Positions 6,616-7,350 of a DNA stretch of 7,637 bases are shown here, piece by piece (position 1 is the first letter of the stretch; each line of letters opens with the position of its first letter). The notes beneath the pieces were generated by a model. The model was not told where the DNA came from, made no database searches, and saw nothing but the letters and a program-made list of their open reading frames with translations. Made by a program: the position numbers and the translations under genes. Source of the DNA: a virus (taxonomy: Duplodnaviria > Heunggongvirae > Uroviricota > Caudoviricetes); IMG/VR virus record IMGVR_UViG_2698536476_000004. One strand, given 5' to 3'.

Positions 6616-7115
6616 CAGAGCGTGAACTGTCCATTATCCGTGCGCTGGGTGAAGAATTCTCCACGGTGCTGGCGGATTTACAGCGCACATTTGAGGGGAA
6701 GATGGCCTCGCAGGCACAAGCGTTTGAAGAGAAACTGACTTCCCTGTCGGCGGTATTACAGAAGCATGTGACGGTGGATGAGGTGCGTCCGGTTCTGCAG
6801 GCGATGGTGGATGACGCTGTGGGGGCCATTCCGGTACCGCGTGATGGTCGTGATTATGATCCGGATGTACTGCAGCAGGCGGTGAATGATGCGGTTGCGA
6901 ATATTCCGGTACCGGCGGACGGCAAAAGTATTACCCCCGATGATGTGCGTCCGATGCTTGAACAGATGGTGAAGGAGGCGGTAAGCCATATTCCTGTTCC
7001 GCGTGATGGTCGTGATTACGATCCGGAAGTACTGAAGCAGGCGGTAATCCGGTACCGGCGGACGGCAAAAGTATTACCCCCGATGATGTGCGTCCGATGC
7101 TTGAGCAGATGGTGA
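6612..7115 (+). CDS. Repeat-containing head-module protein of unknown function, N-terminal part (reading frame ends prematurely at a frameshift inside the repeat array)
   Basis: The ATG at 6612 overlaps the portal stop (ATGA). A helical N-terminal region is followed by IPVP-x-DG-(R/K) modules. The frame terminates at TGA 7113..7115 directly after a 19-bp deficit in repeat copy 2. Confidence 0.6.
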   Translation: MTERELSIIRALGEEFSTVLADLQRTFEGKMASQAQAFEEKLTSLSAVLQKHVTVDEVRPVLQAMVDDAVGAIPVPRDGRDYDPDVLQQAVNDAVANIPVPADGKSITPDDVRPMLEQMVKEAVSHIPVPRDGRDYDPEVLKQAVIRYRRTAKVLPPMMCVRCLSRW

Positions 7116-7350
7116 AAGAGGCGGTAAGCCATATTCCTGTTCCGCGTGATGGTCGTGATTACGATCCGGAAGTACTGCAGAAGGCGGTGAATGATGCGGT
7201 CGCGAATATTCCGGTACCGGCGGACGGCAAAAGTATTACCCCCGATGATGTGCGTCCGATGCTTGAACAGATGGTGAAAGAGGCGGTAAGCCATATTCCT
7301 GTTCCGCGTGATGGTCGTGACTATGATCCCGATGTTCTGCAGAAGGCTGT
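6828..7350 (+). repeat. Tandem array of 162-bp (54-codon) coding repeats, about 3.3 copies; copy 2 is 143 bp
   Basis: Manual alignment gives copy 1 at 6828..6989 (162 bp), copy 2 at 6990..7132 (143 bp), copy 3 at 7133..7294 (162 bp), and a partial copy 4 from 7295 that diverges near 7350. Copies 1 and 3 differ by roughly 7 substitutions. Confidence 0.9.

Follow-up and report, generated by a model that had tools for sequence, protein, structure and literature searches.

A 19-nt loss within a tandem repeat disrupts the gene downstream of portal in a lambdoid prophage head-gene module

The IMG/VR virus record IMGVR_UViG_2698536476_000004 is a 7,637-nt stretch of DNA (the whole of which is here referred to as the window) that represents the head-gene module of an Escherichia coli lambdoid prophage of the enterohemorrhagic E. 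coli (EHEC) type. Directly 3' of its HK97-type portal gene, with a start codon that overlaps the portal stop codon, lies a gene that by sequence comparison is of the ECs_1975 type found in EHEC lambdoid prophages (the C-terminal half of phrog_2271, or phrog_1289). The copy in the window is a disrupted member of this family: as an original prediction made from the letters of the window had proposed, a frame-shifting 19-nt deficit in one unit of a 162-bp tandem repeat splits the gene. The lesion is probably, though far from certainly, a recent, real, and private mutation that makes a pseudogene of an accessory virion gene; mutations like this accumulate in the EHEC prophage pool. The positions of all features are collected in Table 1.

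The open reading frame (ORF) that begins at 6612 encodes 167 amino acids (aa), comprising 145 native residues followed by 22 that are read out of frame up to the TGA at 7113-7115, which is the stop that had been predicted. Also as predicted, the native sequence continues in the −1 frame, whose last stop lies at 7013 and which is open from 7016 to the end of the window at 7637, with a GTG at 7088 and a first ATG at 7097. The intact ortholog, which equals the window copy apart from the lesion, is identical to it over the N-terminal 145 aa and matches positions 455-859 of phrog_2271 (E value of 1.6e-270). The window copy is not an uninterrupted ORF spanning the repeats and the beta domain of the C terminus but stops after 167 codons, and it has the features of a frameshift pseudogene, namely, uninterrupted orthologs, an indel that is not a multiple of 3, and a premature stop. 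A 19-nt out-of-register loss in repeat unit 2 would shift the frame by −1; translation from the ATG at 6612 would then end at the TGA at 7113, and the last two repeats and the entire C-terminal domain would be out of frame. We infer that the lesion abolishes the function of the protein. For annotation purposes, the ORFs at 6612-7115 and from ~7097 onward should be flagged as one disrupted ECs_1975-type gene and not as two genes.

Tandem Repeats Finder located a tandem array at 6905-7347 with periods of 143 and 162, and a second repeat search of the window gave start-to-start spacings of 143 and 162. When the units were aligned with one another, units 1 and 3 were identical at 155 of 162 positions, while the alignment of unit 2 with unit 3 had 19 gap columns and 140 matches among 143 aligned positions. 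These results agree with the unit lengths of 162, 143, and 162 bp that had been read by hand, and they answer the concern that the hand alignment was wrong and copy 2 truly 162 bp long, since the unit alignment keeps it at 143 bp. Unit 2 reads GCGGTAATCCGGTACC, and its counterpart in the remaining units is GCGGTGAATGATGCGGT(T/C)GCGAATATTCCGGTACC. The deficit had been placed around 7045..7050 of copy 2, and alignment to the related genomes EH031 and 01_3327 puts the gap at 7046/7047. Its description as a plain 19-bp deficit holds for its size and its effect on the frame but not for its form: the alignment to the closest relatives shows, instead of a clean 19-bp deletion, a 19-nt gap with an adjacent G-to-A change at 7046. 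Equivalent alignments divide the loss into 1 + 18 or 16 + 3 nt, and the change is formally a 20-to-1 replacement. The junction-spanning sequence of the window record is GGCGGTAATCCGGTACC.

Alignment to orthologous genes of related prophages, which had been suggested as a check, revealed that uninterrupted 407-aa versions are the norm; uninterrupted orthologs were present in about 1,200 complete E. coli genomes. We searched 5,426 complete E. coli genomes with positions 6612-7637 as the query; at least 80% of the query was covered in 1,204 of them, the best matches spanned 1045 bp (1026 + 19), and the number of matching places per genome had a median of 5 and reached 29. Intact 407-aa orthologs in the same gene order are present in prophage Sp10 of E. 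coli O157:H7 Sakai, Escherichia phage JLK-2012, 01_3327, and others. ECs_1975 of Sp10 (NP_310002.1) and PP_58 of JLK-2012 (AFB75461.1) are the same gene as that in the window (93-98% DNA identity), and both loci share with the window the gene order TerS, TerL, protease-capsid fusion, small ORF, and portal, which is followed by this gene and a connector. Their gene pairs (ECs_1974/ECs_1975 and PP_57/PP_58) have the same ATGA overlap, are annotated as separate genes, and contain the same 162-bp repeats; the Sp10 and JLK-2012 copies are uninterrupted, whereas the window copy lacks the 19 nt in unit 2 and is cut short. Asadulghani et al. 2009 (PMC2669165) name Sp10 as one of the three lambdoid prophages of Sakai that retain every gene for virion assembly.

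Among complete genomes, that of strain EH031 is the closest; over the 7.6 kb it differs from the window by six single-nucleotide polymorphisms (SNPs), by the length of a run of G residues at 535-544 (10 versus 11; G10/G11), and by the 19-nt gap with its neighboring substitution. At each of these six SNPs, the window has the same base as a second relative, 01_3327, and it therefore has essentially no private point differences; compared to these two closest relatives, only the 19-nt lesion and the 1-nt difference in G-run length are private to it. The portal protein of the window is identical to those of EH031 and 01_3327.

To describe how the array varies, we used ~100 related IMG/VR loci and the spacing between two motifs, one in half A (PRDGRD) and one in half B (PADGKS) of the repeat unit. 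The spacing from half A to half B was 75 nt in 226 of 228 half-units, the exceptions being the window (56 nt) and locus L066 (73 nt), and that from half B to the following half A was 87 nt in every case (217/217). The ORF lengths of the relatives form a ladder of 245, 299, 353, 407, 461, 515, and 569 aa, in steps of 54 aa, and the ORFs that are fused to portal form a second ladder that also rises by whole units (807, 861, 915, and 1023 aa). Natural variation of the array is by whole 54-aa units, in frame. The lesion does not have the form of a change in a variable-number tandem repeat, with whole-unit change and an in-register junction, as its deficit is 19 nt of a 162-nt unit. It is therefore very unlikely that unequal recombination or slippage between units, whether as copy-number instability or as assembly collapse, produced the short unit: array copy number does vary among relatives, but all such variants change by whole 162-bp units, in frame, while the window junction is out of register, is accompanied by the G-to-A change next to it, has a flanking repeat of at most 2 nt, and matches no existing unit variant. 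No counterpart of the junction sequence was present among the 228 related half-units, no direct repeat longer than 2 nt was found at the breakpoints, and a quasi-palindrome was not improved by the change. Recombination between repeats, a repeat-collapse assembly artifact, and natural repeat-number instability had all been offered as possible origins; we reject the three because all of them predict whole-unit changes. Recombination and collapse would each leave an in-register loss or join, which is not what is seen here, and repeat-number instability, although real in this gene, acts in whole units and not in 19 nt. Gene conversion from a paralog was also considered and rejected, since no donor unit reading GCGGTAATCCGG occurs among the 228 half-units.

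The junction itself was sought in public collections. A 69-nt junction query against the 5,426 E. coli genomes gave full-coverage matches that, among the matches listed, were all in two pieces spanning 88 nt, and each of these therefore contains the 19 nt. The junction was absent from 50,697 phage records, in which the same two-piece behavior was observed. A junction 37-mer had no exact match in GTDB representative genomes, and a junction 20-mer had none in IMG/VR; the five matches of the 20-mer in GTDB representatives and JGI metagenomes were all chance matches of 20-30 nt in unrelated organisms. At the protein level, the 167-aa product had no exact match in an index of 153 billion gene positions, and a search with the truncated product found the KQAV/IRY junction in no protein of a 5.8-billion-protein collection.

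Other broken alleles of the gene are not rare. About 10 of ~75 complete IMG/VR loci carry other truncations of the ECs_1975-type gene. L066 has lost 2 nt within the 19-nt stretch that is missing from the window, L027 bears an out-of-register deletion of 50 nt at a TGCG microhomology, and public proteins include further frameshift alleles, among them P0288 (19 sequences in its cluster) and P0315 (17 sequences). EH031 (L002, 9613-10752) has a frameshift of its own near the 3' end of the gene, resulting in an allele of 379 aa instead of 407 aa. This allele is present in four IMG/VR loci of the length survey (among them L079, L093, and L107), and because of this recurrence we regard it as a real, inherited lesion. 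Like the window lesion, these are frameshifts or out-of-register deletions in or near the repeat array, in prophages that are similar in other respects; they differ from it in position and in size (1, 2, or 50 nt), and some were found repeatedly, in several assemblies or sequence clusters, but the window lesion only once. According to Asadulghani et al. 2009 (PMC2669165), the virion genes of most Sakai lambdoid prophages contain frameshifts or deletions. Other independent disruptions were also noted in L109, P0168, and P0285.

Taken together, we consider that the lesion is likely biological and not technical in origin. A recent event fits the data because only the lesion and the G run are private to the window and because the native frame downstream contains no stop. 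Graph-based repeat collapse is an unlikely source, since the junction sequence exists in no other copy and cannot be invented; such collapse joins existing k-mers in register, so that junction-bearing reads would usually be needed. It is nevertheless quite possible, if short of probable, that a local sequencing, consensus, or polishing error left the record wrong at 7046/7047, and that unit 2 has its normal 162 bp in the source DNA, with the 407-aa gene intact. Several observations favor such an error and weigh against a genuine mutation. The deletion-plus-substitution form, with microhomology of at most 2 nt, is atypical for slipped-strand deletion in E. coli, and a tandem repeat in a multicopy prophage region (matched at a median of 5 places per genome, with a maximum of 29) is a known setting for consensus and polishing errors. 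The only other private difference is the homopolymer length at 535-544 (G10 versus G11), which belongs to a typical class of sequencing error, and no independent sequence with the junction was present in any collection searched, so that its reality rests on one sequence. The rest of the window is identical to intact relatives. On the other hand, independent frameshift alleles of this gene are common, and a real lesion is therefore not improbable a priori.

A functional split would be a different matter, and we consider it very improbable. In this case, either both pieces would be expressed, with reinitiation at GTG 7088 or ATG 7097, or the full length would be restored by a −1 slip within the overlap at 7016-7113 (e.g., at GCA_AAA_G). 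The native frame does overlap the truncated ORF by ~100 nt, with start codons 16-25 nt before the stop; the deletion is equivalent to −1, the commonest direction in phage frameshifting; and the upstream portal/ECs_1975 junction is itself known in both split and fused forms. However, the overlap was seen neither in the ~100 related loci nor in the ~1,200 genomes and thus lacks the conservation of a programmed frameshift, no Shine-Dalgarno sequence precedes 7088 or 7097, and there is no canonical X_XXY_YYZ heptamer. Even the restored protein would still be missing six repeat residues and would carry the junction in a frame-shifted stretch. The lesion either adds to the broken virion genes of EHEC-type prophages, as we favor, or is an error in one record. 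It is an allele-level change in a known but poorly characterized prophage gene, is of little importance in itself, and implies no new mechanism.

The boundary between the portal gene and the ECs_1975-type gene varies among relatives in a run of G residues near the 3' end of the portal gene. With five residues (G5), as in the window, Sakai Sp10, and JLK-2012, there are two overlapping ORFs; with six (G6), there is a single ORF of 807-1023 aa. Among the IMG/VR loci, 61 have G5 (a count that includes four chance matches in unrelated DNA) and 41 have G6, and the G6 run, which fuses the gene to the portal ORF, is present in about 40% of relatives. At the join, the fused proteins read FRGDTEKMTERELS or FRGDTAKMTERELS. 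For the most part, the run length follows the flanking haplotype; all five copies of the window haplotype have G5. Fused "phage portal protein" alleles (phrog_2271, 859 positions; e.g., IMG/VR L094 and L097, 861 aa) share with the window the same portal, the same repeat and C-terminal module, and collinear DNA. They differ from it in having G6 where the window has G5, and the window additionally has the 19-nt lesion. In intact relatives, the Prokaryotic Genome Annotation Pipeline labels portal and this gene together as one "phage portal protein, frameshifted," a call that is due to the G run at 6596-6600. Both states are probably functional, since both persist. If tRNA-Gly slipped by −1 on G_GGG, ahead of the rare AUA codon, a G5 allele would, from the sequence, yield exactly the fused protein. 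One could extend this to a frame-tuned portal/ECs_1975 module, in which the G5/G6 run (possibly with a −1 slip on G_GGG_AUA) sets the share of portal that bears a repeat-plus-CBM5/12 extension and the 19-nt lesion is a selected or tolerated uncoupling of the binding domain and not decay; we consider this very improbable.

The intact 407-aa protein consists of an N-terminal long helix, three to four 54-aa helix-loop repeats, and a C-terminal beta domain with a CBM5/12-like module at its end. We used an AlphaFold model of the 353-aa ortholog P0004, built with a 51-sequence alignment, in place of a single-sequence model with a predicted local distance difference test (pLDDT) score of 41. In this model, the N-terminal helix of ~50 residues has a pLDDT of about 90 and the compact beta domain one of about 97, and the repeat region, which is made up of short helices and loops with a pLDDT of about 55-65, is probably flexible. 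The C terminus of the intact protein matches solved CBM5/12 domains in fold. The PF02839 score of the E. coli protein is 18.7 bits, below the gathering cutoff of 26.2; distant homologs score 17.9-22.6, and precomputed PF02839 matches exist for some Klebsiella and E. coli relatives. Compared to CBM5/12 chitin-binding modules such as those of Serratia marcescens chitinase B and Streptomyces griseus ChiC, the E. coli protein falls below the Pfam threshold, is without a catalytic domain, and is encoded in a phage head module.

A search at an E value of ≤1e-3 recovered 5,782 cluster representatives, which makes this a large family. No Pfam or NCBIfam model of its own was found, a PDB sequence search returned nothing significant, and a search for literature on ECs1975, or on a portal gene with tandem repeats, turned up nothing specific. 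In relatives at 39-49% identity (L112 and L114), the gene still follows the portal gene directly as an ORF of its own, with a start that overlaps the portal stop, and a distant representative of 1,237 aa (P0243) is a fusion to an HK97-type portal. The protein thus appears to be portal associated, either virion borne or ejected, and binding or fiber-like, with a glycan-binding tip. If this role is correct, loss of the C-terminal domain would abolish the glycan-binding function. The wider interest of the gene is modest: it is widespread and has no curated name, lies always beside portal and is sometimes fused to it, varies by whole repeat units, and has a CBM5/12-like end.

Table 1. Features of the window and their coordinates
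Feature	Position	Strand	Basis or remark
HNH endonuclease	161-526		
TerS	817-1380		
TerL	1377-3038		
Peptidase_S78 + Phage_capsid fusion, 645 aa	3102-5039		Peptidase_S78 at residues 48-152, Phage_capsid at residues 386-635
Conserved 73-aa ORF, phrog_829 (function unknown)	5084-5305		Hypothetical protein in relatives; 55-nt overlap with start of portal gene
HK97-family portal gene, 454 aa, intact	5251..6615	+	PF04860, E value of 6.5e-81; phrog_2271 positions 1-451
G5 run near 3' end of portal gene	6596..6600	+	G6 alleles of relatives fuse portal and downstream gene
ATGA overlap of downstream start codon and portal stop codon	6612..6615	+	Read from sequence
Truncated 5' fragment of ECs_1975-type gene	6612..7115	+	ORF read; intact ortholog of 407 aa
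162-bp (54-aa) tandem array	6828..7347	+	Units 6828-6989 (162 nt), 6990-7132 (143 nt), and 7133-7294 (162 nt), then a partial fourth
Rest of gene in −1 frame, stop-free, leaving the window	7016..7637	+	Frame reading; last 1.3 repeat units and most of C-terminal beta domain
Junction of 19-nt loss and neighboring G-to-A at 7046	7046..7047	+	Alignment to EH031 and 01_3327
C-terminal beta domain, residues ~265-407 of intact protein	7295-7637 and beyond		Last ~50 residues with predicted CBM5/12 (chitin-binding) fold

Two further observations concern the upstream part of the window. The spacer that separates TerS from the HNH endonuclease stop (526) contains the G10 homopolymer at 535-544, which is preceded by CCCGCCCC; this run is G11 in EH031 and interrupted in 01_3327. 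The portal gene is located downstream of the protease-capsid fusion, unlike the usual HK97 order of portal, protease, and capsid.
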